Virus record (IMG/VR): IMGVR_UViG_3300028833_003520
Source: a virus
Taxonomy: Duplodnaviria; Caudoviricetes
Strand: one strand, 5' to 3'
DNA: 64,000 bases
Shown: one piece after another, positions 6,185 through 28,163 of the stretch
Layout of the letters: each line of letters opens with the position of its first letter
How positions within the stretch are numbered: position 1 is the stretch's first letter
Translations under genes and position numbers: made by a program
The notes under the pieces: generated by a model
The model's database searches: none
The model's input: only the letters and a program-made list of their open reading frames with translations
What the model was told of the DNA's origin: nothing

Positions 6185-7213
6185 ATGATTAAACACCATA
6201 AAGGACCTCTTGGGGAGTTCGATTACGATAATTCGATTTGGGAAATTAAATCGACGAGGAATGATTTTGACCCTGCTAATCCCATAATGACTATGGAATA
6301 TAAGTTGAAGGGCAATATCAATGGCTCGGAGATAGAAATACCTTATGGTCTTGTAAAAGCAGATAATCTTTTCAAAGATTGTTCCATACAGACACCACCT
6401 TCAATACCTGCAACTGTTAAAAGTTGTAGAAGTATGTTTGAAGGTTGTTCAGGACTGCGTAAGGCTCCCATTATCCCGAAAGGGGTTAAGGATTGTCATA
6501 GTATGTTTAACGGTTGTATATCGTTAAGAGAGGCTCCTCCGAAAATTCCTGACACTGTTCGGGATTGTCGTTTTATGTTTAACCTCTGTGAGAGTCTGAA
6601 GTCAGGTTCGCCGATGGAAGATACTTTACCGAATGAGCCTGTTCATTGTGACGCAATGTACTATGGCTGTACGCATCTGACAGAGGCTCCGAGAATGGGT
6701 CTGTATGTAGATTCTATGGCTTTTACTTTCAACGATTGCAAGAAGTTGAAATATCCACCTGTTCTTCCTAAAAAGGTTGAGACATTAGCAGGTTGTTTCA
6801 AGGGTTGTGAAAGACTTGAAATGGCACCAAGTATTGGTGAAGGCTGCGTTAAAATGGGTCAGACTTTTAGCGGTTGTAAGAAGTTGGTTTATCCGCCTAC
6901 AATCCCTTATACGACGAGATATATGGAAGGATGTTTTGAGGGTTGTAAGAGTTTAACAACCGTTCCTGCTATTCCACCGTCTGTGGAAACAAGTTCTTCT
7001 CTTACGGTGTTTAGCGGATGTTCGCAGAATGTTCAAGACAAAGGCGAATGGGCATTCAAGAACAGAGGTTGTGATTTTGAGCAGTATGGCGTTGTTTCGA
7101 AGCCCAGTCACCGTATCAGAGGTGATGGTAAGAGGAAACTTCCTTCGGTTGATACGAAGGACTCAGATGAGCCAAATAAGAACCCGAATGATGGCGATTT
7201 TGGTAATTCATAA
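6185..7213 (+). CDS. BspA/DUF285-like leucine-rich repeat protein without signal peptide
   Basis: Repeats MFxGCxxLxxAPxIPxxV; C-terminal KRKLPSV tail. Confidence 0.8.
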   Translation: MIKHHKGPLGEFDYDNSIWEIKSTRNDFDPANPIMTMEYKLKGNINGSEIEIPYGLVKADNLFKDCSIQTPPSIPATVKSCRSMFEGCSGLRKAPIIPKGVKDCHSMFNGCISLREAPPKIPDTVRDCRFMFNLCESLKSGSPMEDTLPNEPVHCDAMYYGCTHLTEAPRMGLYVDSMAFTFNDCKKLKYPPVLPKKVETLAGCFKGCERLEMAPSIGEGCVKMGQTFSGCKKLVYPPTIPYTTRYMEGCFEGCKSLTTVPAIPPSVETSSSLTVFSGCSQNVQDKGEWAFKNRGCDFEQYGVVSKPSHRIRGDGKRKLPSVDTKDSDEPNKNPNDGDFGNS

Positions 7214-7238
7214 TATAGAAAGGAACTGGTAACGTAGT

Positions 7239-7625
7239 ATGGATAAGAAAGAAGTCAAAAAGAAGATGGCTCAGATGAGCAAGGCAGAGCAACAGCAGGC
7301 TGAAGCCGAGGCAAAGAAGGCTGAAAAGAAGCGTAAAGAAGCCGAAGCACGAAGGAATGCCGAAGTCAAAAAGAGACGCATTGCAGAGCAACAGGCTCGT
7401 GAAGAGGCAGAACGCAGACAGAGAGCCGAAAGGTTTGCCGAAAGTCAGGGCAAGACTGTCGATAGCAAGCCTGCCCGTATAAGAGGCGAAAAACCTGAGG
7501 CGAATGTTCGTAATCGTCGTACAGAGGCGGCTAATGAGCGTCTCAAGATTGCAAAGATTGAGAATAATAAAGCCGAGCAGGAAGCCGAAGGCGAGCGTGT
7601 AAAGATAGGCAAGCGATACGTTTAA
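7239..7625 (+). CDS. Charged coiled-coil hypothetical protein
   Basis: K/E/R/A-rich ORF with SD GAAAGGAA. Confidence 0.6.
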   Translation: MDKKEVKKKMAQMSKAEQQQAEAEAKKAEKKRKEAEARRNAEVKKRRIAEQQAREEAERRQRAERFAESQGKTVDSKPARIRGEKPEANVRNRRTEAANERLKIAKIENNKAEQEAEGERVKIGKRYV

Positions 7626-7671
7626 GTAGAGTTTGATATATAACTCACTGGTGGGTTTTACATATATGGGG

Positions 7672-7703
7672 AAAGTGGTGGTACTCTGTATCGCCACTTT
7701 TTC
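7672..7703 (+). terminator. Inverted repeat / terminator
   Basis: AAAGTGGTGGTAC-tct-GTATCGCCACTTT followed by T residues. Confidence 0.6.
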
Positions 7704-7732
7704 TTGATATATGAGAGTATGTGTACTATAAT
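7704..7732 (+). promoter_or_regulatory. Class B promoter TTGATA-TATGAG-N11-TATAAT
   Basis: 17-bp spacer; same -35 extension at 13679, 28269, 31905 and 39351. Confidence 0.7.
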
Positions 7733-7786
7733 GGGAAACAGATAGTATAAGACAAAATAGCACACTTGTGCATTTAGGAGCAAAAT

Positions 7787-8110
7787 ATGGTACAACCACG
7801 ATGGGGCAATGAGAATCAAACTAATATGTCTTCAATGGTAGATTTTCAACGAAATCTCGAACTTACCAGAATGACACAAGCAACTCAAGCATTAAATGAG
7901 ATTGAAGAAGAGAGACTAATGTTGGAAAAGGCTCAGGCTATGAATGATATGTCTATCTATGAAGACTATATTAGACGGAGAAATGAACGGAAAGCAACAG
8001 AGCAAAACCGTTTGGCAAAAGCAAATAAAGTAATAATTATGATTGGGATTACAGTAGGAATTGTTGGCATTATACTTTTGCTTATAATGTGGGCTTTGTT
8101 TGCATATTAA
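7787..8110 (+). CDS. Small protein with a C-terminal TM segment
   Basis: SD AGGAG; hydrophobic C-terminus. Confidence 0.6.
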   Translation: MVQPRWGNENQTNMSSMVDFQRNLELTRMTQATQALNEIEEERLMLEKAQAMNDMSIYEDYIRRRNERKATEQNRLAKANKVIIMIGITVGIVGIILLLIMWALFAY

Positions 8111-8121
8111 GGAGTGGTTTA

Positions 8122-10365
8122 ATGGGTTTGAAACAATCCGTTGTAATAGTCAACGAGTTTTCTATAAAGAATAAATCGGGTAAGGGTGGTTCACGAGGTG
8201 GAACACCTGGCGACTATGTAACACGATATATGGCTCGTCCTAAAGCAACCGAGGATTTGACACCTGTAAGGTTACAGGACACAGACAAGTTCATTACGAG
8301 ATATATGGCTCGTAAGGAAGCGTCTGAGCAGTGCATTTCAGTCGAAGACGAAAAGGAGCGTATGCGTGAGGCTCAGAAGTTCGGCGGCATAGCCTTTGGT
8401 TATGGCGACGTTTCTTTGTCTGACAGTAAACTTCGTTACGCCAGTAAGGATATACAGAAGGAATTCGAAAGGGGAAAGACGGTCTTAAAGACAGTCTTGT
8501 CTTTTGACGAAGAATACCTCAAATCTAACGGAATCGTTGACGAAGACTTCGAGTTCAAGGAACGAGGAGACTATCGTGGTAACATCGACCAAATGAAACT
8601 CCGTATGGCTATAATGAATGGCTTGGATAAAATGAGCAAAGACTATGATGACTTACGTTATGTAGGCGTTATACAGGTCGATACGGCTCATATACATTGC
8701 CATTTGGCTATGGTGGATGCAGGTCGAGGTAACATTATGCCTGACGGCACGCAAAGAGGGAAACTGTCTGAAAAGAACAAGCGTGATTTGAGGAGAGGAA
8801 TTGATAATTTCCTTGACGAGAAGAAGAAAGTCTTAATGATGACGAGTAATGTCTCAAGAGACAAGAGGAATGCCTTGTGCTATATCAAAAAGTTTACTCA
8901 TAAGACGATGGATGAACACGGTACTCCGCAACTTCTTATGGCTTGTCTTCCTGAAGACAAGAATCTGTGGCGTGCATCGACTAATCGCAAGGAGATGAGA
9001 AAGGCTAATGCAATAGTCAGAGATTATGTAGAAGAGGTATTGAAACAGCCCGATTCAGGTTATGAAGAGGCTATGGAGTCCATACTTCAGTATGCAGATG
9101 AGCGTCGTAGCCGTGAAGACTTGGACAACAAAGAGTATCGTATGTTGTGCAAAAATGGTCGAGAGCAGTTGGTCGAAGACTGTATGAACGGTGTTTATGC
9201 AGTATTGAAGCAAATTCCTGATGAAGAGCGTACTGTTAAGACACCTCTGCTTGATACGATGAGTATGGATTACGAAGAACTGAGCACGAAGGCACAAAGT
9301 GACGAGATGTCGATGTTCGGTTTCAGACTTCGTTCATATAATAACCGTCTGGAATATCATAAGAAGGAAATGAATAAATACCACGAGTATGTACGAATGT
9401 ACGAAGATACTCCTGATGCGGCACGTTCTTCTAAAGTGCTGTATGACTTCTTCAAGGAAGAAGAGGAGTATAATCAGAAACTCGTCGGTAAATATAGGCA
9501 TTTCCTTTCTTTCGCAATCCCTGATGAGAAATATGAGGACGATTTTACAGAACTAATGCAGTATCGTGGAAGGATGACCAATTTAAGACGATTAAAGGAC
9601 GATAAGTCCTTAAAGCGTATGAATCCTGACCGTGCTGAAGAAGAAGGACGTAAAATCTACGGACAAGCAGGCGGTAGATATGCTGCGACAAATCCAAATA
9701 TTCTTGAAACCCGACTCATCAATATGAGATTGAGATACAATCGAATGGAAGAGGATTTTAAGATGAAACTGTCCGAATACGGAATGGTAATGGGTATTAA
9801 GGACGGTAAGATGGTTGTTGAAAGGGGAGAACAGTTCCCATTTGATGATGTTAAGGCTTTAGACTTACATCACCTCGGTTACGATTGGCAGGAAGATATT
9901 ATTATTGCAAAACGAAATGTTGATAACTTCATTGAGGCGACAGACAATCGTTATGAGAAGTATCAGGCTGCAGTACAGTATCTTAAAGATTCTGACCAGG
10001 AGTTGATGATAGACCAGTTGCCTACTAAGGATATTCAGGCTATGAAGGAACTCGCAGACAGTTTGAGAACAAACCCTGTCTTGCCGAAGAGTGATGTCTA
10101 TGAAGGATATAAGCACGACGGTCGTACTGTAAGCCTTGATTTCGATTACGGCGAGGATATGCAACGAGCAGTTAAGATGACCGTTAGAAGCGTCGCAAAT
10201 GCTCCAGATTTCGACGAGAGGCGTTCTACGAGGTCTGTACCTGTTATTCCTGCTGAAGCACCTATAGAGCCTTCTGGAAGGCGTACAGGACGTAATGTAC
10301 CTGATGTTGGTAATAAAAGCCCTGATAACGATTTGGATTCTGTCAGAAGACAGAGAGGCGAATGA
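8122..10365 (+). CDS. mobL: MobL-family conjugative relaxase
   Basis: N-terminal YVTRYMAR Tyr motif, KTVLSFD, RGNIDQMKLR, YVGVIQVDTAHIHCHL (HUH); ATG 8122 after AAGGAG. Confidence 0.8.
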   Translation: MGLKQSVVIVNEFSIKNKSGKGGSRGGTPGDYVTRYMARPKATEDLTPVRLQDTDKFITRYMARKEASEQCISVEDEKERMREAQKFGGIAFGYGDVSLSDSKLRYASKDIQKEFERGKTVLKTVLSFDEEYLKSNGIVDEDFEFKERGDYRGNIDQMKLRMAIMNGLDKMSKDYDDLRYVGVIQVDTAHIHCHLAMVDAGRGNIMPDGTQRGKLSEKNKRDLRRGIDNFLDEKKKVLMMTSNVSRDKRNALCYIKKFTHKTMDEHGTPQLLMACLPEDKNLWRASTNRKEMRKANAIVRDYVEEVLKQPDSGYEEAMESILQYADERRSREDLDNKEYRMLCKNGREQLVEDCMNGVYAVLKQIPDEERTVKTPLLDTMSMDYEELSTKAQSDEMSMFGFRLRSYNNRLEYHKKEMNKYHEYVRMYEDTPDAARSSKVLYDFFKEEEEYNQKLVGKYRHFLSFAIPDEKYEDDFTELMQYRGRMTNLRRLKDDKSLKRMNPDRAEEEGRKIYGQAGGRYAATNPNILETRLINMRLRYNRMEEDFKMKLSEYGMVMGIKDGKMVVERGEQFPFDDVKALDLHHLGYDWQEDIIIAKRNVDNFIEATDNRYEKYQAAVQYLKDSDQELMIDQLPTKDIQAMKELADSLRTNPVLPKSDVYEGYKHDGRTVSLDFDYGEDMQRAVKMTVRSVANAPDFDERRSTRSVPVIPAEAPIEPSGRRTGRNVPDVGNKSPDNDLDSVRRQRGE

Positions 10366-10679
10366 TGGAACTGACCAAGGATGCCGCAAAGATTTGTGCC
10401 ATAATTACGGGAGTGATGCTGACCGCAGTTACTTTTGCTTTTGTTATTTTTGTGTTCCGTTTTCAAACTGATAATCAGTATGTAGAACAGTTGGTTCGGG
10501 CAGGAGCACAAATAAGCGACGATATGACATATATAGACGCTCGTGAACAATTAGACAAATCGTCTTCTATTCTTATGGGGTTCGGTGTGTTAGAGTTGTT
10601 ATTGACATCTATTTTTGGTATTTGCTTAAGAGCAGGATTTGTACCTAAGAAGGAGACGAAAAAAGAATGCGAGCGTTAG
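10362..10679 (+). CDS. Two-TM hypothetical protein
   Basis: ATGA overlap with the relaxase; two hydrophobic segments. Confidence 0.55.
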   Translation: MMELTKDAAKICAIITGVMLTAVTFAFVIFVFRFQTDNQYVEQLVRAGAQISDDMTYIDAREQLDKSSSILMGFGVLELLLTSIFGICLRAGFVPKKETKKECER

Positions 10680-11011
10680 TTAATTATGTGGACGCAAATG
10701 ACGGTTTGACAGAAGCAAGGGTTGTAAATGTGTTGACCGTAGGTCGTAACAACATAGGACCGAAAGGTTCTGCATTTACAATCCGCATATCAGACGGATT
10801 ATTGATTTTTAATCATAATGAAAGTCTGATACACAATGATACTTATAAGAAAGTTCTTCAGGAACTTCTTAATAAGGGATATGTTGATTTGACAGCGTAT
10901 GGCGAGTTTGTTGATAAACATACAGCAAGGCGTGAATACGAGGCAGATGGCATATCAGTATTTATACCTAATAGGGAGGACTTCAAAAATGAGCAGAATG
11001 ACCGAGAATGA
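10667..11011 (+). CDS. Hypothetical protein
   Basis: SD AAGGAG; overlapping operon arrangement. Confidence 0.55.
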   Translation: MRALVNYVDANDGLTEARVVNVLTVGRNNIGPKGSAFTIRISDGLLIFNHNESLIHNDTYKKVLQELLNKGYVDLTAYGEFVDKHTARREYEADGISVFIPNREDFKNEQNDRE

Positions 11012-11213
11012 GAAAGTGCTTGATTCGTTGAAAATGAATCCTAATCAGGATGAATGGGAATTAACAACGGATGTTAACACAGCAAAATGTATGCTTTTAG
11101 CAGACATTTCGAAGAGTCTTGCAATCCTGGCAGACAAGGTTGAAGAAGAGCGACGCAACAGAGACGGTGCTTCGGCATTTATGAATGACAAGCGTTATGG
11201 AAACGGACAGTAA
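10989..11213 (+). CDS. Hypothetical protein
   Basis: ATG 10989 after GGGAGG. Confidence 0.5.
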   Translation: MSRMTENEKVLDSLKMNPNQDEWELTTDVNTAKCMLLADISKSLAILADKVEEERRNRDGASAFMNDKRYGNGQ

Positions 11214-11226
11214 GGAGTGATTATGT

Positions 11227-11784
11227 ATGCCAAAGAAGCGATTGAATAGTCCTGTATATACTTTAGGACGAATGGTTCGCTGCAGAATGACAGAGGATAG
11301 TACCTCTGGAACTCTGTATTCTTATGGACGATACAAAACCAAAATAAAGGTCGAAGATTTGCCTGAAGACTATATCAAATGTCACGCTCGTGTATTTTGG
11401 TATTTATTTGGTTTTGTTAAAACATCAGGTGTTAAAAGCGTTGCTTTTACTTATTGTAAGGAAAATCACGTTTTTAAGGATGACTATCTTTATATCGGCT
11501 ATCAGGGTCCCTTGGTTCCTGTATATTCGGAATATTTAGAGGGGTATATATGCGATTATAAAGATGGTGAACATAGCAGTCTTTGTGTCGATGGAAGCGA
11601 CATAGTAAGATTGGTATTGGCTATCGAGAAGTATTCTCCTGATGTAGATACATCTGAGGTTAGAAGACTTATTGACGAGAAGATAGAATATCTTCGTACA
11701 AAAGAGACGGATTACTATAAGAGTTGCTTCAACACAACAGAAAAGATAGATATCTTTGAGTTGTGGGGAAAGGATGGTTATTGA
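11227..11784 (+). CDS. Hypothetical protein
   Basis: SD AAGGAG; 185 aa. Confidence 0.6.
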   Translation: MPKKRLNSPVYTLGRMVRCRMTEDSTSGTLYSYGRYKTKIKVEDLPEDYIKCHARVFWYLFGFVKTSGVKSVAFTYCKENHVFKDDYLYIGYQGPLVPVYSEYLEGYICDYKDGEHSSLCVDGSDIVRLVLAIEKYSPDVDTSEVRRLIDEKIEYLRTKETDYYKSCFNTTEKIDIFELWGKDGY

Positions 11785-11785
11785 T

Positions 11786-11998
11786 ATGTTTGGATATTGG
11801 ATTCAGATTATTGCCCTGGTAGCGTTTGCAGTTGGATATCTTATCTTCATAGGTTGCGGAGTGATGAACGCAGCAAGCGAGAAGATTAAGTTTGTTCCCA
11901 ATGATGGTGTTTACGATGTGTCAGCCTGCATTGGTGGACTCAGCGTAATAATGTTTCTGATTGGCGTAGTTGTTAATCACGGATTGTTCTTTATGTGA
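11786..11998 (+). CDS. Small two-TM protein
   Basis: Hydrophobic ORF coupled to the upstream stop. Confidence 0.5.
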   Translation: MFGYWIQIIALVAFAVGYLIFIGCGVMNAASEKIKFVPNDGVYDVSACIGGLSVIMFLIGVVVNHGLFFM

Positions 11999-12005
11999 GG
12001 TGAAT

Positions 12006-12353
12006 ATGGATAACTGGATGCGAAACCTTCGAAATACTATTACTGTGTGGGGTCCAAGTCTTATCTGGACAATAATCTGTTTGGTGATTGTTTTAACACT
12101 CATTATTTTGTGTATTATTACACTTGTTCGTTTGTGTAAAGTTTTAGGAAAAATTCAAGGATTTTTTGAAGAACTTGAAGCAAATGGAGCCACGCTTGCA
12201 CAAGTAACTTATGCAAAAGCCGTAAGTCTTAAAACGATTGCAGAAACAACCGATGATATTGCAGATGAAACTGAAGGTTTGAAAGTTGTTACTGAGGCAA
12301 TTGGTTATGAAGATATGAGTGTTTATGAAAATTATAAGAAAGGGCGTGACTGA
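12006..12353 (+). CDS. Membrane-anchored hypothetical protein
   Basis: SD GAGGTG; one TM segment. Confidence 0.5.
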   Translation: MDNWMRNLRNTITVWGPSLIWTIICLVIVLTLIILCIITLVRLCKVLGKIQGFFEELEANGATLAQVTYAKAVSLKTIAETTDDIADETEGLKVVTEAIGYEDMSVYENYKKGRD

Positions 12354-12354
12354 T

Positions 12355-12639
12355 ATGAGCAGGCAAAGGCGGAGCATAAAAGCCACACCAAATTGGATAA
12401 TACCTGATACTGTTGAAAGAGATAAAACTTTAGTTATAAGAATTGTAATTATTGTTGTTTTATTAAGTATTCTCATCCCTATATTAACTATGTGTGGTTT
12501 TGAATATAATATGAATATTGCTCAAGGCGGTAAGCAGACAATTGAAGACCTTATGGGTTCTGGTAAGACAGATACAAGTGCAACAGGTGTACAACCTTGG
12601 GAAACAGTTCAAGGAGCAACTGGTCAAACAATTAAGTAA
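12355..12639 (+). CDS. Membrane-anchored hypothetical protein
   Basis: One TM segment; coupled start. Confidence 0.5.
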   Translation: MSRQRRSIKATPNWIIPDTVERDKTLVIRIVIIVVLLSILIPILTMCGFEYNMNIAQGGKQTIEDLMGSGKTDTSATGVQPWETVQGATGQTIK

Positions 12640-12660
12640 TTTAGATTATAATAAAACAAT

Positions 12661-13533
12661 ATGGATGCAGTTAAGAAACAATTAAAAATTTGGAGAATTG
12701 ATAATATTATAATTGCATTTGTAATGTCGGTTACAGTTAGTGCTTTTTGGGAAGTCAGAATGCACGGTTTTAGTCTATTTATAGGATTTTTCTTTTTAAT
12801 TGCAGTGTTAATCACTTTATGCAAAGCATATAAGTTTAATCCTTTCGTATCATTTGAACCTATTGTATTCATAATTGATATTACGAATAAGCGAAATGTT
12901 GATTATGATGAATACATAAATAACTGGGTTTTTAATAATGAAAATTACGATTTTAAGATTGAAAGAGAATCACATTTATCAACTTGGGAGAGTAATTGTA
13001 AGGATATAATTGACAGAGAAATATTCTTTAAGAAACATAGATTAAACCAGTATGCGATTGTGAAGCAGCAGGTGACCGATTATCATTATCCAATATTTCA
13101 ATGGAATTTTGTTCGTTATCATACTCGATATCGACAAGTTAATTATCAACGATATTCTTATGCTGTTGATGATTTGGATTATATTGTACAAAAATCGTAT
13201 ATTGATACTTGGGAATTAGATGCTATATGTGAAGAAAGAATACGCCAAAATGAAGAAAGTTTCGAAAGAACGCAACGCTTTTTAGAAAATAATAAGTATT
13301 GGCTTCGTTCTCGTTCTCGTTCGGTAGGACCTAAACAGCGTCAGCGTATTTTGAGAAGAGATAACTTTACTTGTCAATTATGTGGTGCAAAAGGTCCTGG
13401 TGCTGGTGGTAGTGCTGAATTAGAAGTTGACCACAAATTACCTTTTAGTTTAGGTGGAAGCGATAAAGATAGTAATTTGTGGACATTATGTAAAGATTGT
13501 AATAGAGGGAAGAGTAATGATTATATAGATTGA
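12661..13533 (+). CDS. Membrane-anchored HNH endonuclease
   Basis: Two N-terminal TMs; RDNFTCQLCG...EVDH...GG...NLWTLCKDCNRGK. Confidence 0.85.
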   Translation: MDAVKKQLKIWRIDNIIIAFVMSVTVSAFWEVRMHGFSLFIGFFFLIAVLITLCKAYKFNPFVSFEPIVFIIDITNKRNVDYDEYINNWVFNNENYDFKIERESHLSTWESNCKDIIDREIFFKKHRLNQYAIVKQQVTDYHYPIFQWNFVRYHTRYRQVNYQRYSYAVDDLDYIVQKSYIDTWELDAICEERIRQNEESFERTQRFLENNKYWLRSRSRSVGPKQRQRILRRDNFTCQLCGAKGPGAGGSAELEVDHKLPFSLGGSDKDSNLWTLCKDCNRGKSNDYID

Positions 13534-13636
13534 CGCTTAAGAAGCGATATACTATAATAATTACAATTCTTTTCGTCATTAGTTCGCTGGTCAAGATAGT
13601 TAAACAGAATCACGTTTCGTGGTTCTGTTTTTCTTT
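13530..13636 (+). ncRNA. Putative stand-alone small RNA (promoter, about 70 nt, terminator)
   Basis: TTGACG 13530-35, 17 bp, TATAAT 13553-58; 13-bp hairpin 13602-13630 plus T run; no ORF. Confidence 0.55.
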
Positions 13637-13678
13637 GTTCAGATATATTTATCGTACCATTAAAAGTACATAAATCTC

Positions 13679-13707
13679 TTGATATATGAGGAGATTCGTG
13701 CTATAAT
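13679..13707 (+). promoter_or_regulatory. Class B promoter
   Basis: TTGATA-TATGAGgagattcgtgc-TATAAT. Confidence 0.7.
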
Positions 13708-13747
13708 ACGAATGTACTTAACCTATTGGCAAATGGAGAATATATCA

Positions 13748-16132: not shown

Positions 16133-16136
16133 CAAG

Positions 16137-18065: not shown

Positions 18066-19259
18066 ATGGGAATTTTGGTGACTGAAGATTTGATGTATAA
18101 CAATTGTGAAAATATGTATTCTCGTTTAGTTGAAACTGGTGAGTGGAACATTATTCGTGAGTGGGATTTTGAAGCCAATGGTTTTTCTTTGAAGGATTTA
18201 GAAAGCGTTTGTTTTAGACACGATTTCTATTTTAGATGTCCGAATGGGCATTTGTTTAAGGATAGTTTTTGGCATACTGGTTGTCCTGAATGTAAGACTT
18301 ATTTTGATATGAGATTTGGTCGTAGAAATAAGTTAACAATGGAGTTTGATGCATTGAAAAAGCGGTATGGCGAAGAGTCATTAAATCCTTTGATTTATAC
18401 GAATGAATCTGCTTATAATGAGTATATTGCTTTGATTGAAAAATATCCACAGTGGGCGTGCAAATATATATTGCCAACAGCCCCTTTTTCAGAAATGAAA
18501 AAGGTATATCCTGTTGCTGATGAGTTTATTACTCAACTTATAATGAGCGATGATGGTCATTCTGTTACGAATTCAGGCATTGGTACATACTTAATTGGCG
18601 GAAATAGCAGAAAGTATGATACATATATGAGGCAGTATGTGCGTATTTTATATCAAGATGAAATAAAATTACCTTTCAAAATTGCTCGTCGGTTGTTAAG
18701 TCATAATACACAGTGTTATGGTGATGACTATGAAGCCGAAGCAAATTCTGCTGCTCTTGAAGAATGTGATAAAAGTTGTTCTGTAAAAGAGCACGTTATT
18801 GAGTTTTCATCTATTTTCTTAAATCGTTTGGAAAATCTTATAGTGTCAAGTGATAAAATACAGTCTAATGTGCCATTATGTGATGCATTACAGGAATTGT
18901 ATGATACGATGAACGATAGTTCTATGAAGCCGAATAAAAAGTGGCTTGAGTTGGATAATCTTGAGTTCATTAAGAAGTGTAATAAATATGAACACAATAT
19001 TCGTAAGGCTGTAGAATTTTTGAATGAAAATCCTAAGAAATCGTCAAAGCCGTTTCGTGTAGTAGATTTGAAATTACGTCAAAAGATACTCAGACGTGAC
19101 AACTTTACGTGTCAACTTTGTGGTGCTAAAGCACCTGATGTCAGGGTAGAGGTTGACCATAAAGTTCCTTATAGTAAAGGCGGTGAGACAGTAGAGAGTA
19201 ATCTTTGGACACTATGCTGGGAATGTAATCACGGAAAGAGTAATAATTATATAGATTGA
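18066..19259 (+). CDS. Zinc-ribbon plus C-terminal HNH endonuclease
   Basis: CPNGH...GCPEC; RDNFTCQLCG...EVDH...NLWTLCWECNHGK. Confidence 0.85.
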   Translation: MGILVTEDLMYNNCENMYSRLVETGEWNIIREWDFEANGFSLKDLESVCFRHDFYFRCPNGHLFKDSFWHTGCPECKTYFDMRFGRRNKLTMEFDALKKRYGEESLNPLIYTNESAYNEYIALIEKYPQWACKYILPTAPFSEMKKVYPVADEFITQLIMSDDGHSVTNSGIGTYLIGGNSRKYDTYMRQYVRILYQDEIKLPFKIARRLLSHNTQCYGDDYEAEANSAALEECDKSCSVKEHVIEFSSIFLNRLENLIVSSDKIQSNVPLCDALQELYDTMNDSSMKPNKKWLELDNLEFIKKCNKYEHNIRKAVEFLNENPKKSSKPFRVVDLKLRQKILRRDNFTCQLCGAKAPDVRVEVDHKVPYSKGGETVESNLWTLCWECNHGKSNNYID

Positions 19260-19267
19260 GGTGTAAT

Positions 19268-19543: not shown

Positions 19544-19576
19544 AAATGTAGTTGTTTTGTCAAAGCACCAAAACAC

Positions 19577-19916: not shown

Positions 19917-20009
19917 TCGGTTTATGCGAGAGACAATTAGAGCATATTGTCGAATGTTAATGAGAGTGATAAAATATGCTCATAAACGAGGAGAAAGGAG
20001 CACTAACAA

Positions 20010-20171: not shown

Positions 20172-20527
20172 TAATGTTTTGTATATGCAATGATTGTGGT
20201 TCACAAACAGAGTTGGATTGCAATGTTCACATAGGTTTTTTGAGAGGTACACAATTTGAGTACCTCTTATCTAATCCGAATTTCACGGAAGAACGCTTTC
20301 AAAATTGGTGGAAAGTGATGTGGGATAATCATCAGATTGCTTGGTGCGAAGACCAAGACGTAATTAACCGTTTCGGCGGTGATGTTGCTGCTTACGGCGG
20401 TACATACGATGAGGAAACTATGAGAATGAAAAATCCGACGGATTTATTCTTGGATGAAGTTGATAGATACACTCAGAATGGGTGTGTCTGTCCAGTATGT
20501 GGTTCGAAAAATAACCGATTGCGTTGA
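20168..20527 (+). CDS. Zinc-binding hypothetical protein
   Basis: CNDC...CPVC. Confidence 0.55.
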   Translation: MIMFCICNDCGSQTELDCNVHIGFLRGTQFEYLLSNPNFTEERFQNWWKVMWDNHQIAWCEDQDVINRFGGDVAAYGGTYDEETMRMKNPTDLFLDEVDRYTQNGCVCPVCGSKNNRLR

Positions 20528-21180
20528 AAGGGGCGTTTACAGTGAAGAGTCTTGACAAAGTTTTTTATCGAAACAAAACAAAAAGAACACCAAATACTAT
20601 GCTTGATAGGTTCTTTTGGCTTAATCCAAATCTGTCAGGTGAAAAGGCTTGGGGTGATAGTTCAAATGTCACCTACGAGAATATCTATAAGATAGCGACT
20701 TTTGTAAACGATTTTCACGGGCAGGCTTGGGGAACATCACTTCATAGAAGTGTATTCAAGATTGCAGGGTATAGGTGTCTTTGCCAAATCGAAACACCAT
20801 ATCTTTTGACGTGGAAAGAGTCCTTAAATATACATAAACCCGAAGATGTAGAAATGCGTATTCGGTTTATTTTTAATGATGACCATTATGCAAGTCTGCT
20901 TGATTTTGGTCGTAGTTATTTGATTGCTCATATAGGTGAACTGCCACAGGAAACGGAAGCCTTGCGAGAGTTTCTTGACGAGCGTATTGCAGAATGTGCT
21001 CGTCAGTTCTGTAAAGAACTTCTGTGGATTCTCGGTAATATTACCGAGGAGAAGACTGGATATCGTTCACCTGAAGAGTTAGACGAAATCAAATGCAGCG
21101 AAGAGTCGATTACAGAAGAATATGTTCGCTTATTTGGTCAGAGAGTTAAGGACGATGGGAGAGTAACAGACGATGCCTGA
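20524..21180 (+). CDS. Hypothetical protein
   Basis: 218 aa coupled ORF; start uncertain. Confidence 0.55.
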   Translation: MKGAFTVKSLDKVFYRNKTKRTPNTMLDRFFWLNPNLSGEKAWGDSSNVTYENIYKIATFVNDFHGQAWGTSLHRSVFKIAGYRCLCQIETPYLLTWKESLNIHKPEDVEMRIRFIFNDDHYASLLDFGRSYLIAHIGELPQETEALREFLDERIAECARQFCKELLWILGNITEEKTGYRSPEELDEIKCSEESITEEYVRLFGQRVKDDGRVTDDA

Positions 21181-22054
21181 TTATACATATGAGATATGGG
21201 GTGGTAAAAAGATTTATGCGAGGAGCCATAGTCTTGAAATAATTACTGAAAGGTTGCAGGAATTATGGAACACTCCTGTTGGAAGTAGGCAAGAAGCCTT
21301 TACAATAAAGCGAGTGGAAAAACAACACCCACATATGCCAGGGCATTCTTTAGAGAAAAATAGTTTAGCCAAGAGGTTTCCGAAGGTTGCTAAACTGTGG
21401 CATCCAACAAAGAACGATTGCCTAACACCGTCTGATGTTTTTCCTTATAGTAAAACAAAGGTATGGTGGCAATGTAAAAAAGGACACGAGTATTTTATGG
21501 CTATCGACAGTATGGTAAGTGGTGCGAAATGTCCTTGCTGTACTCTTAGGCAAGCGGTGCCAGGAGAGACTGATTTGGCTACAACGCATCCTGATGTTGC
21601 CAAACTATGGCATCCAACAAAGAATGGCGATTTAACACCATTACTTGTGACCGAGAGGTCTGCAGAGAAAGTTTGGTGGCAGTGTGAAAAAGGTCACGAA
21701 TGGGAAGAGCGTATAAATGTTCGTGTTTCAAGAAAGTCCAGTTGCCCTTATTGTAGCGGTACGAGGCTTATAAAGGGCGAGAATGATATTGAAACGCTTT
21801 ATCCCGAAATCGCAAAAGAATGGAAAGATACGAGGCTGAACGGTGGTCTGAAACCCTCAGAATGCACGGAACGTACATTTAAGAATGTATGGTGGCAGTG
21901 CAGCAAGTGTGGAACAACTTATCAGGCTTCGGTCTTTAGACGAGTGAAGGGGTGGCAGAAGTGTCCGACTTGTTATCCTAATGAAGATAATATAATTTCT
22001 CCGAAACGAGCGTATGATGGTTATACGACAATAAGGAGAAAATCAAATAAATAG
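21173..22054 (+). CDS. Repeated zinc-ribbon domain protein (DUF4379-like)
   Basis: Three repeats of WHPTKN..LTP....S..KVWWQC..GH...CPxC. Confidence 0.8.
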   Translation: MPDYTYEIWGGKKIYARSHSLEIITERLQELWNTPVGSRQEAFTIKRVEKQHPHMPGHSLEKNSLAKRFPKVAKLWHPTKNDCLTPSDVFPYSKTKVWWQCKKGHEYFMAIDSMVSGAKCPCCTLRQAVPGETDLATTHPDVAKLWHPTKNGDLTPLLVTERSAEKVWWQCEKGHEWEERINVRVSRKSSCPYCSGTRLIKGENDIETLYPEIAKEWKDTRLNGGLKPSECTERTFKNVWWQCSKCGTTYQASVFRRVKGWQKCPTCYPNEDNIISPKRAYDGYTTIRRKSNK

Positions 22055-22068
22055 TTAAAAAGTTAAAT

Positions 22069-22106
22069 GAAAACCTCAAATGTTAAAATTTGGGGTTTTT
22101 CTTTTT
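22069..22106 (+). terminator. Rho-independent terminator
   Basis: AAAACCTCAAAT...ATTTGGGGTTTT plus T run. Confidence 0.6.
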
Positions 22107-22113
22107 GATTTAA

Positions 22114-22142
22114 TTGACAATCTCCATATATGGTGTTATAGT
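22114..22142 (+). promoter_or_regulatory. Class A promoter
   Basis: TTGACA-atctCCATATATGGtgt-TATAGT. Confidence 0.8.
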
Positions 22143-22182
22143 GTTTTTAGATTGCAAAACTATGCATAGAAGGAGATTTGCT

Positions 22183-23127
22183 ATGTTAATTGGTCCTGAT
22201 TTCAAATCGTCTAATACGCCTGACGCAATAGTGCGTTGGTACGATAAAGCCGATGTATTTCGTGTAAATAAAGAGGGCGATATTCTTCAGGTTGATTCTG
22301 ATGCGAATGCAAAGCAGCCTGGTTATTTTATACGTATGTGCATATCTGATATGACAGAGAATAGTGAGCGTTCTTATTTAAGATTTGGATTGTTTCATAC
22401 GGATGCTCCTGATGAGCCTTTGTTTATGGGTGCTCCGTTGACAGGATTGCCTGCTAATGCAATGAAGGAATTGTTAGTGACGGAAGGCAAAATCAACGAC
22501 AACGGTAAACAGTTTCTTAAGTATTTCAAGGCAGACTGTGATAACAATCAATCTGTTATTAAGGGACAGTATAAGACTGCAAAAGCCTATCACGATTTTG
22601 TTACTAAGCGTGAAGGCGAGGGTGTTTATGATTATGGTTGTTATGATATGTCAGATGAACTCGGACAGTTTTCAGACGTAGTTGAGAAGAATAAACATAA
22701 ACATCCATTTGAGTATGGATTTATCAATCTTTCAGATAAGGAAGCAGACCAATTAGGTATTCCTCATAATGAAGTATCATCTGCAGAACTTCTTTATGAG
22801 ATACCATACAATAGGAAAGATAGGGTTCGTTTGTTTGCGTCTATGAAGGCTCCTTTAGAGGGAGAGTATGAGAGAGATAGACAGTTTGTTCCTGTATCTG
22901 AATTAGGCAAGGATAAAGAGTTATTAGCGTGGCAGATGGCAGTGGATTATTATCAGATTTATTGTTCAAAGATGTCTCATCGAGTTTGTAATACATCTAA
23001 TTTTAGCCTTATGCCTGATTCTGTAAAGAATGAAATTCAAGAGCAAGAACACGCTGAATCAAAAGAAAGACGGTTGCCAAATGTTCCTGAATCACAGGAA
23101 GATAATCAAACACAGTTAGGAGAATAA
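22183..23127 (+). CDS. Hypothetical protein with RRLP tail; shares a domain with 23989-25263
   Basis: ATG 22183 after AGGAG; ends ERRLPNVPESQEDNQTQLGE. Confidence 0.7.
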   Translation: MLIGPDFKSSNTPDAIVRWYDKADVFRVNKEGDILQVDSDANAKQPGYFIRMCISDMTENSERSYLRFGLFHTDAPDEPLFMGAPLTGLPANAMKELLVTEGKINDNGKQFLKYFKADCDNNQSVIKGQYKTAKAYHDFVTKREGEGVYDYGCYDMSDELGQFSDVVEKNKHKHPFEYGFINLSDKEADQLGIPHNEVSSAELLYEIPYNRKDRVRLFASMKAPLEGEYERDRQFVPVSELGKDKELLAWQMAVDYYQIYCSKMSHRVCNTSNFSLMPDSVKNEIQEQEHAESKERRLPNVPESQEDNQTQLGE

Positions 23128-23129
23128 AA

Positions 23130-23231
23130 ATGATTATTGTTTTTGAAGAATTACAAGTTAGTTCAAGTGATGGTGATTATGTTCCCACTGATGAGGAATT
23201 AGCAGAGTTATATAATGATGTAGGAGAATAG
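23130..23231 (+). CDS. Small acidic peptide (33 aa, not in the ORF track)
   Basis: SD AGGAG; MIIVFEELQVSSSDGDYVPTDEELAELYNDVGE fills the gap between operon genes. Confidence 0.45.
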   Translation: MIIVFEELQVSSSDGDYVPTDEELAELYNDVGE

Positions 23232-23235
23232 TATT

Positions 23236-23985
23236 ATGGGTATTGGAACACCTTATGGTTACAATGGTGAGATAAAACGGCTTTATGATAAAGACGATAA
23301 GACTCCATCATATATAACACCAACTTTTATGCAGAATAAAACATTGGGTGATATTCAGACGTTTGTTCAAGATGATACAAGTAATATAAGGAGTGATAAG
23401 ACAATGGCTAATAACAAGAAGAAAGCACTGAAGAAGCAGACAGTTATCGTTGATAAGAACGATAAGAAGACAATCGAGATACTTAAAGAACAAAATATCA
23501 ATGTGGTCGAAGCATCACATTCGGATTTTGTTAGAATGAAGAAAGAGGCTCAGATGTCGCCTTTGAAGAAGGCAGGCGAGGTAGCGAAAACGGTTCTTGA
23601 ACCGAAGCCTATTTCGGCTAAATCCATTTCGGTTGCTTCAACGCAAGATAAGCCTGCACAGTTCAAGACGGGTAATGCTGTTATTGATACGATACTTGAT
23701 AAAGACGCAGGCGTTAGCAAGGATGGTCCTACACCGTCTCTTCAGATTGGTGTCGTTAAGAAGGATGGTGCTACACCTTCTGTTGCAGAGCAACTGAAGG
23801 ATAGAGTTCCTATGCTTCACGGTCGTGAGAGAGTGAAGTCTCCTACGGAGAGAATGATTGTTCCTGCTGGGCAGTATGCTGGACCTGATGGTGATTTCGA
23901 TGGTACAACTGTGGATGTTAAGAAGCGTAAGTTACCGAATGTGCCGACGGCAAATGATGGTACACAGCAGCAGTTAGGAGAATAA
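23236..23985 (+). CDS. Hypothetical protein with an RNAP-like DGDFDG segment and KRKLP tail
   Basis: RVPMLH...DGDFDGT; ends KRKLPNVPTANDGTQQQLGE. Confidence 0.7.
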   Translation: MGIGTPYGYNGEIKRLYDKDDKTPSYITPTFMQNKTLGDIQTFVQDDTSNIRSDKTMANNKKKALKKQTVIVDKNDKKTIEILKEQNINVVEASHSDFVRMKKEAQMSPLKKAGEVAKTVLEPKPISAKSISVASTQDKPAQFKTGNAVIDTILDKDAGVSKDGPTPSLQIGVVKKDGATPSVAEQLKDRVPMLHGRERVKSPTERMIVPAGQYAGPDGDFDGTTVDVKKRKLPNVPTANDGTQQQLGE

Positions 23986-23988
23986 TCT

Positions 23989-25263
23989 ATGGCTATTCAG
24001 AAGTACAATGGAGAGTTAGGTAAATTTGAGTATGATGATACTCAATTTGAAATATGCAATGGTGTAGTTAATGGAGACATTTATCTACATTACATCGGTA
24101 AGGAAACGGATGGCTCGAAGATTACAATTCCTTATGGCATCGAAGATGCTAATAAAATGTTTAAGGACACGGCTATCAAGACTGCTCCAACAATCCCCGA
24201 TAGCGTTAAGGTATGTAATGAAATGTTTTGCGGTTGCAATAAGTTGGTAGAGGCATCAGAAATACCGACAAATGTACGGTCTTGTTACCATATGTTTTAT
24301 GGTTGCAAATCGTTAAAAGAGCCGCCTTATATTCACGATGGACCTGAAGACTGTCGTGGAATGTTTCAGAACTGTAGCCATCTTGAAGTTGGTGCAGAAT
24401 TACCAAATACTGCAACAAAAGTTTCAATGGTTTTTTGCGGTTGTGGTTCTATGAAGAGTGCTCCTGATATGCCAAACATTATGCGTATCAAGTCTATGGA
24501 TAGTGCGTTTATGGGATGTAAATCTTTGGAAAGAGCATTTATCCCTGATGGTGTGGAAGATTGTAGTTTTATGTTTAACGGATGTACTTCTCTTAAAGAA
24601 GCACCTGCAGTACCATCGTCTGTTATTAAGACAAGTTATATGTTTGACAGATGTACTGATGAGATACAGGGTCAAGGCAAGTGGAATATTGAACATAGAA
24701 ATAGACGTGCTTCTCAGGATGAGCCGAAGGCTTTGAGAGATGCAAGGCAGGCTATGATTATGAAAAAGCAGCAGGATAAAATGCAGAGATATGTTTATGC
24801 AGAAGGTAAGACCTGTAACGGTCACGACTTGGCATTTGCTTTCGATATGTATCACGATAATGTTGTACGTTTTAGAAAGGGTAGGTTATTTCAAGAGAGA
24901 AGAGATATGAACGATAAGGGTAATTACTTTGCTCGTATAATGCAGGTCACTAACGGTGACCCGTATGCAAGAGATTCTCTTATCGTAATGTTCCACGATG
25001 ATATGCCTTCAACGCCACTTTATGCAGAGCATTTTGGCTTGTGCGATGGTACTCTTAAAAAGCATCTGTACGACCAGAATGGTTCGTTCACGAATCTTGG
25101 CAATGATATGATGCTTGATTTCTTAAATGGTGATTTTAAGAAGAATGTACCAGAGGTGGTCAAGTATAAGGATAAGTTGATGAAGAATCCGAAACTCAAC
25201 GAGCGTAGATTACCTGATTATCCTAAGGAGAATGAAGGTAATGATAAACAGTATGGAGAGTGA
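23989..25263 (+). CDS. BspA/DUF285-like LRR protein with an extra C-terminal domain and RRLP tail
   Basis: MFxGCxxL repeats; ends ERRLPDYPKENEGNDKQYGE. Confidence 0.8.
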   Translation: MAIQKYNGELGKFEYDDTQFEICNGVVNGDIYLHYIGKETDGSKITIPYGIEDANKMFKDTAIKTAPTIPDSVKVCNEMFCGCNKLVEASEIPTNVRSCYHMFYGCKSLKEPPYIHDGPEDCRGMFQNCSHLEVGAELPNTATKVSMVFCGCGSMKSAPDMPNIMRIKSMDSAFMGCKSLERAFIPDGVEDCSFMFNGCTSLKEAPAVPSSVIKTSYMFDRCTDEIQGQGKWNIEHRNRRASQDEPKALRDARQAMIMKKQQDKMQRYVYAEGKTCNGHDLAFAFDMYHDNVVRFRKGRLFQERRDMNDKGNYFARIMQVTNGDPYARDSLIVMFHDDMPSTPLYAEHFGLCDGTLKKHLYDQNGSFTNLGNDMMLDFLNGDFKKNVPEVVKYKDKLMKNPKLNERRLPDYPKENEGNDKQYGE

Positions 25264-25961
25264 CAATCCAAATGATTAAATGGCGAAGACAAGAAGTTGA
25301 TTGCCACGAGCAACGAAGTAATTCGGTCACAACAACTATTTATAAGTTTCACTTAGGTTCAACGGCTGCTAAAGCCGTTGGTGCTTATTGTGACGAAGAA
25401 AATCATCAGTATGGTGATTTGACTTATATTACTTCGAATAGTCCTGAGATACAGTCCAACATATTCGTAGATATGTCTGTAAACGATATTCTGGATAATT
25501 TTAGCGATAATGAGAAAATGATAGATACTATCATTTACGACCAGAATAACGATTACTGTATTAGTAAGGAAACGAAGACAGGCGATAGAATGATAAAAGT
25601 GCCGTTTTCTTATTTACCTTCTGACCAATGTTATTTGGCTCATAATATCGTTTTAGCAAATATGCGTGTTTGCTTTGGCGATAGTTTTAAGTTAGATGAT
25701 AGAGTACATAACATTGCAGTTGAAAGAAGCAGTGACAAGGATTGTAGTAAAATGAATATCTCTACAAACGGTTACTGTTGGATTTCAGGTTCTCCCAGTG
25801 ATGGTAATAATTATCATAGGTATGTTGACGCATATCGTGATAACGATGAAGGAAGACATAACCTACGAGACTTTTATGATAATACACCGTCAAAGTTTAG
25901 GCGTATGCCAAGTGTTCCGATAGATAACTCGAATGTATTCCAGGCACAGGTTGGTGGTTGA
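25260..25961 (+). CDS. Hypothetical protein with RRMP tail
   Basis: Ends FRRMPSVPIDNSNVFQAQVGG; start may be ATG near 25272. Confidence 0.65.
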   Translation: MTIQMIKWRRQEVDCHEQRSNSVTTTIYKFHLGSTAAKAVGAYCDEENHQYGDLTYITSNSPEIQSNIFVDMSVNDILDNFSDNEKMIDTIIYDQNNDYCISKETKTGDRMIKVPFSYLPSDQCYLAHNIVLANMRVCFGDSFKLDDRVHNIAVERSSDKDCSKMNISTNGYCWISGSPSDGNNYHRYVDAYRDNDEGRHNLRDFYDNTPSKFRRMPSVPIDNSNVFQAQVGG

Positions 25962-25962
25962 T

Positions 25963-26589
25963 ATGGCTATTAAACAGTATGATGGTCAGTTAGGTAAGTT
26001 TGAGTACGATGATACAGAGTTTAAGCATCTTATTTTCAGAGACGGACGTAAGGAGTGCCTGATGTATATCGGCAATGAGTCAGACGGCTCGAAAATTAAA
26101 ATACCACAAGGAATCAAGGATTGTTCCTTTATGTTTGATAGGTGTGAATCGTTAGAGACACCACCTGTGATTCCTGAAGGTGTAGAAGATTGCAGTGTTA
26201 TGTTTTCTGATTGCAGAAACTTAGAAGTTCCACCGATTATACCTTCATCAGTAAAGAAATGCGATGCAATGTTTTACTATGCAAGGTGTATGCGTGAATC
26301 ACCTGTAATTCCTGAAGGTGTAGAAGATTGTACCTTGATGTTTCAGGGTTGTTATAATATGCGTTCGGCTCCCGTAATACCTCATAGCGTTAAGGACACG
26401 ACTTGTATGTTTTGCGTATGCTCACGTAAGGTAAGCGAAGCAGGGGAGTGGAATATTGAGCACAGAGGTCAGTCTTATGAGAGCGTTCAGAAACGCCATA
26501 GGGATGCCGAAAACAAACTCAAAGAGTTTGAGGAAAAAGAAGAATCAAGCACGAAATCTCGCCGAGGTTTTCATCTCCCATTCTTTTGA
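25963..26589 (+). CDS. BspA/DUF285-like LRR protein
   Basis: PVIPEGVEDCxxMF repeats; N-terminus shared with the other two LRR paralogues. Confidence 0.8.
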   Translation: MAIKQYDGQLGKFEYDDTEFKHLIFRDGRKECLMYIGNESDGSKIKIPQGIKDCSFMFDRCESLETPPVIPEGVEDCSVMFSDCRNLEVPPIIPSSVKKCDAMFYYARCMRESPVIPEGVEDCTLMFQGCYNMRSAPVIPHSVKDTTCMFCVCSRKVSEAGEWNIEHRGQSYESVQKRHRDAENKLKEFEEKEESSTKSRRGFHLPFF

Positions 26590-26592
26590 GAA

Positions 26593-26621
26593 TTGACTTT
26601 CTCCATATATGGAGTTAGAAT
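26593..26621 (+). promoter_or_regulatory. Class A promoter
   Basis: TTGACT-ttctCCATATATGGagt-TAGAAT. Confidence 0.8.
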
Positions 26622-26657
26622 AACTTTAGATATTGATAGAAAGGAAAGTAGTGGGTT

Positions 26658-28163
26658 ATGGCAGATATAGATGAAAAGAATTATCAACAGCATCATTATG
26701 ATGATTATGCCAAGTTAAATGGGTTCTACAATGATGAGGAGTACAATAATTCTTACATTAACGGACTTTCTACGAAGTATGTTAAGGATTATAAGAATTA
26801 TAAATCAGCCCTTATTTCAGTTCCTACTGAAGTATCGTCTAATGGTAGAGCCTTAATTACATTCAAGAATTATAATGAGGCGGTCAAAGGCAAAGGTTAT
26901 GTCAATCTGAGGTTCCCTCAGAATTACGAGATTAAGACCATCTGTAAGGATGCCGATAATAAAGATGTCATTTATCATATGACGGCAGACCAGTTGAACG
27001 AGTGTCGTTCGGCTGCGAAGAATAAGACAGATGAAGTCTTAAAGTCAGTTACGTTTGACTTTGCTGATGAGAGCAAGATTAAGTGTCGATTTGATTTTGA
27101 TGATTATAGTCGTCAGTATGACCTTAAAGACCTTAATAGTGCTCTTGAGTATCTGCAGATTAGAAATTCTGCAAAGAATCTTATCACTGACGATACGATG
27201 ATTTACGCAAGAGTTAATAAAGCGTATTGCACGAAGGATTTCCAAGACAAGATGTCCTACTACTCTGGCGACAATTATTGCTTCGAATTAGGTATGCTTA
27301 AAGACACATACAATAAGGGATGTGGCTTGAATGTCAACATTCCTTTTGATGAGAAGTATAATCATTTCAATAGCGTATTAGGAACTGCGACAGACTCGCT
27401 TACATTGTCCCTGACAAATCATTATGAGAGGAGTTTACCTCGTGATGATAAGGAAGGAGATTGGACTATTACAGAGTCTCACAGCGACGTAGCCGCAGCA
27501 TACAGAATACCGTCGGTGCTGGCAACGGCTGGTGTGGGTATGCGTTTTGAAACTCGTGAAGATGCAGATATGCAGGCACGGTCTTCAATGAGTGATTTAG
27601 TGTTAGCGATGAACGATAAGGAAAAGGTAGAGCCTACCGAAACAAGTAGGTACGGAAAGATGCCTATCGAGTATTTCCTTGTTCATATCTCTGATAGAGA
27701 TAGTTATGTCTTATGTGCAGGTCCGAAGGGTGCTTCTGAAGGACTTGACGGAAGACGTTTACCGAGTGTAGGCGGAGTACCTATGTACGAAGGATTCGTT
27801 GGTATGACGAAGCGTCATTTCGGAGGTTTTGGATTAGGCGACACAGTATGTATCGCAAAGGAGAACAAAAACGGAGAAACGGCATTGGAGCCTATTGACG
27901 CAGTACCTTTGGTACAGCAGTCAGTTGTCAAAGATGAAGGTAAGTTCTTGGAATTAGAGCATTCACTTTTACAGAAATTACCGTTAGAAGTCAGACAAGC
28001 AGAGGTTGAGAATAAAAAGAAGAATGCTCCAGATACTAAACCTTGGATAAGGGAATTAAGTGTAGGAGTAGATTCTGATGTTAAATCACCAAAGCCAAAG
28101 AAGAGGCGACTGCCTGATAGAACGTATGAACCTGGTGTTGAAACACCTGAACTTGAGTTGTAA
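26658..28163 (+). CDS. Hypothetical protein with RRLP tail
   Basis: SD GAAAGGA; ends KRRLPDRTYEPGVETPELEL; internal GRRLPSV. Confidence 0.7.
   Translation: MADIDEKNYQQHHYDDYAKLNGFYNDEEYNNSYINGLSTKYVKDYKNYKSALISVPTEVSSNGRALITFKNYNEAVKGKGYVNLRFPQNYEIKTICKDADNKDVIYHMTADQLNECRSAAKNKTDEVLKSVTFDFADESKIKCRFDFDDYSRQYDLKDLNSALEYLQIRNSAKNLITDDTMIYARVNKAYCTKDFQDKMSYYSGDNYCFELGMLKDTYNKGCGLNVNIPFDEKYNHFNSVLGTATDSLTLSLTNHYERSLPRDDKEGDWTITESHSDVAAAYRIPSVLATAGVGMRFETREDADMQARSSMSDLVLAMNDKEKVEPTETSRYGKMPIEYFLVHISDRDSYVLCAGPKGASEGLDGRRLPSVGGVPMYEGFVGMTKRHFGGFGLGDTVCIAKENKNGETALEPIDAVPLVQQSVVKDEGKFLELEHSLLQKLPLEVRQAEVENKKKNAPDTKPWIRELSVGVDSDVKSPKPKKRRLPDRTYEPGVETPELEL

Follow-up and report, generated by a model that had tools for sequence, protein, structure and literature searches.

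A recurrent C-terminal tail on proteins of a rumen conjugative element, a candidate tag for type IV transfer

Why do soluble proteins of largely dissimilar sequence end in the same short peptide? The question is raised by IMG/VR record IMGVR_UViG_3300028833_003520, a stretch of 64,000 nucleotides deposited as a virus of the Caudoviricetes (hereafter the window). An original prediction, made from its sequence alone, had pointed to a shared (R/K)R(L/M)P-acidic tail and proposed it as a secretion signal. The window is part of a large conjugative element, a rumen megaplasmid, and identical gene sets are found on contigs from rumen metagenomes, the largest being 243 kb long. The element is conjugative, encoding a cell-wall hydrolase, a MobL relaxase and a coupling protein of the VirD4 type. 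When the region was compared by Megablast with collections of plasmids and phages, no similar record was returned. We found the shared tail on unrelated proteins to be real and far beyond chance, and weigh below what it may be for.

The type-1 tail and its carriers

All six proteins predicted to share the tail, here called type 1, indeed carry it and end where they had been said to end. Scores are those of a profile built from the six tails.

7130-7210, plus strand: tail of the leucine-rich repeat (LRR) protein 6185-7213 (LRR_5 domain); K-R-K-L-P-S-V-D, 27 residues from the end, ending Phe-Gly-Asn-Ser; 25.2 bits
23068-23124, plus strand: tail of orphan protein 22183-23127 (no family); R-R-L-P-N-V-P, 19 from the end; 37.1 bits
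23923-23982, plus strand: tail of orphan protein 23236-23985; K-R-K-L-P-N-V-P, 20 from the end; 38.7 bits
25204-25260, plus strand: tail of LRR protein 23989-25263; R-R-L-P-D-Y-P, 19 from the end; 35.5 bits
25899-25958, plus strand: tail of orphan protein 25272-25961; R-R-M-P-S-V-P, 20 from the end; 32.8 bits
28101-28160, plus strand: tail of orphan protein 26658-28163; K-R-R-L-P-D, 20 from the end, ending Leu-Glu-Leu, with no abutting gene; 30.1 bits

Gene starts were corrected by promoter overlap and by gene calls on identical contigs, giving 22183 (not 22114), 25272 (not 25260), 25963 (not 25933) and, for the relaxase, 8122.

The core of the tail, [KR]R[KR]?[LM]P, occurs at seven distinct places among the 60 proteins of the window (16,792 residues), against 0.42 in residue shuffles. 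Six of the seven lie within the last 30 residues of their protein (19, 20, 19, 20, 20 and 27 from the C-terminus), where 0.035 would be expected, and this number was reached in 0/2000 shuffles; the C-terminal enrichment over shuffled controls that had been put forward as a test of the idea is thus borne out. The binomial P for this placement is 9e-6, or 7e-5 with paralogs merged. The profile scores its own six tails at 25-39 bits, and the next best site in the window reaches 2.9.

The consensus begins with a basic pair followed by Leu/Met-Pro-(Asn/Ser/Asp)-(Val/Tyr)-(Pro), continues through about 12-13 polar or acidic residues, and closes with a hydrophobic residue at position -3 and Gly-Glu, Gly-Gly or Glu-Leu. 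Beyond the basic pair, all six tails are net negative (charge -1 to -4), and position -3 is Leu, Tyr or Val in five of the six, the other having Phe at -4. The DNA encoding the tails has a mean column identity of 48%, the same residues being written in different codons. Since the DNA is not conserved, selection acts at the level of the peptide, and the tail is not a repeated DNA cassette. In an AlphaFold model of the LRR carrier, residues 1-240 are confident and the tail has a predicted local distance difference test score (pLDDT) of ~34 and no secondary structure, in a model where the entire C-terminal 160 residues are of low confidence and the alignment has 7 rows; the tail is probably disordered.

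Could the final residues simply be dictated by the Shine-Dalgarno (SD) sequence of the next gene? The prediction had itself cautioned that they are in part, and rightly, as four of the six tails have Gly-Glu or Gly-Gly ends that overlap the ribosome-binding site of an abutting gene. Window genes that carry the next gene's SD often end in Gly/Glu/Asp-rich residues. The overlap accounts neither for the hydrophobic residue at -3 nor for ends without an abutting gene (7213, 28163, 45121).

The carriers had been described as otherwise unrelated. This is true of four of them, which show no BLAST similarity to anything in the window, and not of 6185-7213 and 23989-25263, which are paralogs: all-against-all BLAST placed both with the tail-less 25963-26589 in one group of BspA-type LRR proteins. 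As only two of the six carriers are paralogous, the tail sits on five independent body families. The four orphans had no match among Pfam, PHROG and NCBIfam families, a metagenome scan with protein 25272 returned no relative, and protein 23236 has no homologue outside its own contig family. A single-sequence AlphaFold model of 22183-23127 (pLDDT 50) was too poor for a fold search. Membrane segments and signal peptides are absent from all six, which are predicted to be soluble and cytoplasmic. Between the first two orphan genes lies a very acidic 33-residue open reading frame (ORF; 23130-23231) with its own SD; it ends Val-Gly-Glu and has no basic core.

A second tail, the relaxase extension and relatives

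A second tail type, R..R(V/A)..AE, had been proposed for the products of genes starting at 5428, 44585 and 58186.

6103-6180, plus strand: type-2 tail of 5428-6183; R-x-x-R-V-K-R-A-E, then Ile-Ala-Pro-Ser; ends Leu-Gly-Gly
45047-45118, plus strand: tail of 44585-45121, a weaker type 2; ends Ile-Gly-Gly, the next gene following after 132 nt
58714-58809, plus strand: type-2 tail of 58186-58812; R-x-x-R-V-K-K-A-E; ends Tyr-Gly-Tyr

The proposal holds for 5428 and 58186, whose products have R-x-x-R-V-K-(K/R)-A-E in common, 26 and 32 residues before the C-terminus (expectation 0.04), while 44585 fits only weakly. The bodies of the three products are mutually unrelated. Orthologs of 44585 with similar Ala/Lys/Glu-rich tails were found in loci L007, L009, L010 and L096 and in Actinobacteria, and sit beside the relaxase or a ClpB-like gene in both phyla. 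A loose version of the pattern has six matches in the window, all in the last 40 residues, which is only suggestive because it was written after four of them had been seen.

Motifs resembling the type-1 core are also found at the end of the relaxase.

8122-10365, plus strand: MobL relaxase (Pfam domain)
10198-10362, plus strand: element-specific relaxase extension of 55 residues, in which the motif R-R-x-x-R-(S/N)-V-P occurs twice, 48 and 28 residues before the C-terminus

Among 150 representatives of the relaxase family, most of ~700 residues, the C-terminal module begins with a basic stretch and continues with Thr-Val-Ser-Leu-Asp and a helix; an end of the hydrophobic-plus-Glu type is found in 46%, compared with 1.8% of control ORFs. 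In the window relaxase this conserved module ends near residue 703 and is followed by the extension, which is peculiar to this element and missing from the ~700-residue homologues. A protein encoded just upstream of the relaxase (4156-5175 in the window, L031:8476-9906, and ~70 other loci) has a tail of ~40 residues that is conserved in Actinobacteria and runs from a basic cluster through Pro-x-Pro-Ser-Leu-Asp-Glu and then a basic helix to a final Leu-Gly-Ser. To the eye, this tail looks like a combination of both tail types and the terminal part.

Metagenome homologues of the LRR carriers retain the tail to varying degrees. In P0004 it aligns residue for residue with that of 23989-25263 and the preceding ~150 residues are unalignable; P0006 keeps R-R-M-P. 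P0007 and the LRR homologue of G002, a Lachnospiraceae metagenome-assembled genome, have a type-2-like R-(R/K)-(V/A) motif in place of type 1; a single body family thus bears either tail type in place of the other. LRR homologues in low-GC (guanine-cytosine) contigs of other kinds have no such tail. The relative L097 is syntenic with 5428-7625, and its first gene keeps the type-2 core at 11/11 positions. Its orthologous proteins end in a hydrophobic plus a small or acidic residue (Tyr-Glu and Phe-Gly) free of any SD overlap, the SD lying downstream of the stop codon.

Contig C28 of G002 encodes a homologue (31736-39223, 2495 residues, 30% identity, E 2e-73) of the giant RNA polymerase-like protein of the window. 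Two otherwise dissimilar C28 proteins both have R-E-I-P-x-V, 19 and 20 residues from the end. Judged by these sequences, the C28 tails have the geometry of type 1 with other residues and are an independent replicate of it. The RNA polymerase homologue itself ends in an Arg-Lys-Ala-Asp, type-2-like tail. On an unrelated metagenome contig (L112:1-13400), more than 10 small proteins end in Glu-rich E-x-E-(K/R)-E runs, which look like a different private C-terminal tail.

The cargo island and the transfer genes

Five of the six type-1 genes lie together, and the tail genes have a promoter in common.

22069-28220, plus strand: cargo island; terminator, promoter, five-gene operon, second promoter, gene 26658-28163, terminator
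22114-22142, plus strand: copy of the shared promoter heading operon 22183-26589, with a palindromic spacer
5355-5383, 26593-26621, 44365-44389 and 58090-58114: further copies of the shared promoter

The island (~6 kb) is flanked by DUF4379 and DUF7004 genes; these abut in the relative L095, which marks 22069-28220 as an accessory island inserted relative to L095. The promoter has five matches in the window against 0 expected, with near-consensus -35 and -10 elements. Its copies are near-identical, and the 17-nt spacer holds a 10-nt palindrome that may be an operator. Each operon with a tail gene of either type is headed by one copy, and these operons look like a regulon.

Candidate readers and other large proteins of the element are as follows.

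53203-57579, plus strand: giant VirD4/TraG-type coupling protein, 1458 residues, with two membrane segments and a cytoplasmic domain from about residue 298; candidate reader
48922-50742, plus strand: ClpB-like double-AAA+ ATPase, adjoining the coupling protein in all relatives; alternative candidate reader or unfoldase
46702-48504, plus strand: soluble paralog of the coupling protein, rare, in close relatives only
40722-41762: ClpX-like protein
58888-64000: giant single-chain RNA polymerase-like protein with an RNA polymerase catalytic domain

The coupling protein is 54-62% identical over ~1200 residues to those of L018, L037, L038 and others, from Streptomyces, Arthrobacter and Plantibacter elements, an unusually high conservation across phyla between a low-GC rumen element and Actinobacteria. 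The ClpB-like gene is paired with the coupling-protein gene in elements of both phyla. In L009 (3295-6828) and L011 (13134-17153) the ClpB-like ATPase is 1177-1339 residues long and carries two insertions of ~360 residues, each close to one AAA+ domain, around residues 67 and 331 of the query. The inserted segments resemble inteins; a fusion with the coupling-protein paralog was ruled out, these being the ClpB-like protein plus two large insertions. We also considered whether the soluble paralog co-occurs with type-1 tails and found no support for the idea: L095 and L096 have the paralog and no type-1 tail in the 13-21 kb seen.

Also encoded in the window are a RecD2-type helicase, a D5-type primase and two HNH endonucleases, and the cell-wall hydrolase is a membrane-anchored lysozyme. 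The two HNH genes (12661-13533 and 18066-19259), whose products are related over their C-terminal ~100 residues, are both missing from the otherwise identical contig L001, which looks like a polymorphism of homing-type insertions. Protein 32409-33320 starts with a Cys pattern like that of a zinc ribbon, and its C-terminal part is a long repeat composed almost entirely of Asp, Tyr, Trp, Gly and Ser. Region 34337-35930 holds three tandem paralogs of 164-184 residues that belong to no known family.

What the tail may be for

With moderate confidence, we read the tail as a short recognition tag on unrelated soluble accessory proteins, read by an element-encoded reader for type IV transfer. A single reader of this kind would bind the tag and deliver its bearers to the type IV channel; the likeliest candidate is the VirD4-type coupling protein, through its cytoplasmic domain, alone or in complex with the ClpB-like ATPase. 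The tagged proteins would then enter the recipient unfolded, alongside the relaxase-DNA complex, and do their work early, ahead of any expression of the incoming genes. The relaxase extension, with its two look-alike motifs, would use the same reader. Substrates of type IV secretion systems (T4SSs) must be unfolded (PMC5826034), which gives the ClpB-like ATPase a plausible role.

The prediction's suggestion of a T4SS signal fits in several respects. The element is conjugative, the tail is C-terminal and Arg-containing, with an acidic stretch and a hydrophobic -3 position, and it occupies the extreme C-terminus of unrelated bodies, on predicted cytoplasmic carriers encoded together with a MobL relaxase, a type IV coupling protein (T4CP) and a lysozyme. 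T4SS signals described in the literature are C-terminal, charged and unstructured, and often have a Glu-rich block or, at -3/-4, a hydrophobic residue or Pro (PMC10025392, PMC5536186, PMC5802825), and conjugative T4SSs ship plasmid proteins (PMC8406263, PMC11288057). In the account given in PMC10025392 of Vergunst et al. 2005, the Agrobacterium VirF, VirE2 and VirE3 signals for VirB/VirD4 are C-terminal and Arg-containing; as described there, they resemble the present tail in lying at the extreme C-terminus, unstructured as the tail here probably is, with spaced Arg residues, on unrelated proteins read by VirD4, a reader that is here only proposed. By comparison with that description, the tail is net acidic after the basic pair, its Pro-containing core is sharply conserved, and it belongs to a Gram-positive/actinobacterial-type system known from sequence.

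Closer likenesses come from systems in which many proteins share an end. Substrates of the Legionella Dot/Icm system have a hydrophobic residue near -3. All six type-1 tails combine such a residue at -3/-4 with an acidic block. The 'E-block' signals of Dot/Icm are Glu-rich and bound by DotM (PMC5802825; PMC10025392); like our tails, they have acidic or polar residues some 5-15 positions before the end, and in Dot/Icm they occur on hundreds of unrelated proteins. That system, however, is type IVB with DotL/M/N adaptors, and the tail described here has in addition an R-R-(L/M)-P core further upstream; among 30 window proteins scanned with Pfam there was no DotL/DotM/DotN-type complex, only a T4CP of VirD4/TraG type. 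On the tfs3 integrative and conjugative element of Helicobacter pylori, unrelated proteins (CtkA, PZ39, Fic) share a short K-R-R-R tail, which is missing from homologues elsewhere and has been interpreted as a secretion signal gained by these proteins (PMC5536186). That tail is made up of four terminal basic residues and belongs to a Gram-negative host, whereas the one here has ~20 residues in two parts. Plasmid accessory proteins travel with DNA in the F/pED208 'conjutome', pKM101 and RP4 (PMC8406263, PMC11288057), as we propose here, and C-terminal residues aid their recognition; no common sequence motif is found in those systems, whereas a sharp consensus marks the candidate set here. The XVIPCD of Xanthomonas (PMC8740702) is also a conserved C-terminal module on diverse bodies, bound by the all-alpha domain of VirD4, but is a folded domain of ~120 residues and not a 20-residue linear tail.

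Several results weigh against a transfer tag. Related elements had been named as a place to look for the same tail; LRR homologues and the geometry in C28 agree with the proposal, but in 80 distant loci around relaxase relatives, from Bacillota and mostly Actinomycetota, the exact core is not enriched at C-termini (3/46 occurrences against 3.5 expected), and the type-1 profile had no match in ten other loci. With coupling proteins 54-62% identical, a conserved T4CP pocket would lead one to expect a more conserved tag. The missing motif in distant relatives and the geometry kept in C28 together make the tag look private to a narrow group of elements. The negative net charge after the basic pair is unlike classical VirB/D4 signals, and searches for the function of the cargo bodies (PHROGs, NCBIfam, ESM Atlas) gave nothing usable. 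Despite the resemblance, the type-1 profile does not match the relaxase extension, which most relaxase homologues lack. Nor are the cargo tails a copy of the relaxase C-terminal module (R-T-V-S-L-D plus helix): a profile of 105 relaxase tails matches only the window relaxase (37 bits), the cargo tails scoring at most 1.4 bits. The idea that they are shortened versions of the tail of the 4156-5175 family, conserved across phyla, was likewise dropped, as the likeness by eye has no profile support.

Four other explanations deserve consideration. The tail may be a tag for an AAA+ unfoldase or protease (the ClpB-like or the ClpX-like protein, or host Clp) that controls the stability or remodelling of co-regulated proteins in the donor, without export. 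AAA+ machines commonly read short terminal tags, the window encodes two Clp-type ATPases, and the tail is terminal and of low confidence in the model. We nevertheless consider this unlikely: no protease partner was seen in the window, a look-alike motif is also present on the relaxase, and in all relatives the ClpB-like gene stays beside that of the coupling protein, which links it with transfer and not with turnover.

Short linear motifs at a fixed distance from the C-terminus are also typical of hub-binding peptides, and the tail might dock its proteins to a hub other than the transfer apparatus, such as the single-chain RNA polymerase, the relaxosome or replisome, an LRR protein or a host factor. 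LRR domains do bind peptides and the carrier genes are co-regulated; yet two LRR proteins carry the tail themselves, no hub candidate stands out, and the carrier bodies are without DNA- or RNA-related domains in Pfam, PHROG and NCBIfam, so that docking of this kind seems improbable to us.

That the tail is functionless, having spread by 3'-end recombination or common descent with its last residues set by the next ribosome-binding site, we regard as very improbable. It is true that five of the six genes lie side by side, that two carriers are paralogous and that four Gly-Glu/Gly-Gly ends overlap an SD, but the peptide is conserved where its DNA is not, the distance to the end is fixed and the motif lies upstream of the SD-encoded residues. 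Moreover, the tail is better kept than its flanking sequence in homologues from other elements, and C28 has the same geometry with different residues. Finally, a signal for another export route (sortase-like, type VII or ABC exporter) is hardly credible, since Leu-Pro-x-x-(Pro/Asp/Thr) is only superficially like an LPXTG-type sortase motif, the carriers have no N-terminal signal peptide, the motif is followed by acidic residues and not by a hydrophobic segment or basic anchor, and the window holds no sortase, type VII secretion or exporter genes.

The transfer-tag reading can be taken further, though only tentatively. A literature search found no T4SS signal described for Gram-positive-type conjugation, and the tail could be the first sequence-defined export signal of Gram-positive/actinobacterial-type conjugation. 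It would mark co-regulated effectors (the LRR proteins and the four orphans) that the ClpB-like ATPase would unfold and that would be injected together with the DNA so as to prime the recipient; related elements would have private versions of the same geometry. Gram-negative T4SS signals are known only as loose biases of charge or hydrophobicity, whereas here there is a sharp consensus, a fixed geometry and a defined set of genes. If true, protein co-transfer in conjugation would become directly testable, and there would be a way to list the proteins that a plasmid sends ahead of its DNA. It would also help to explain why a ClpB-like unfoldase and the coupling protein remain paired in elements of two phyla.

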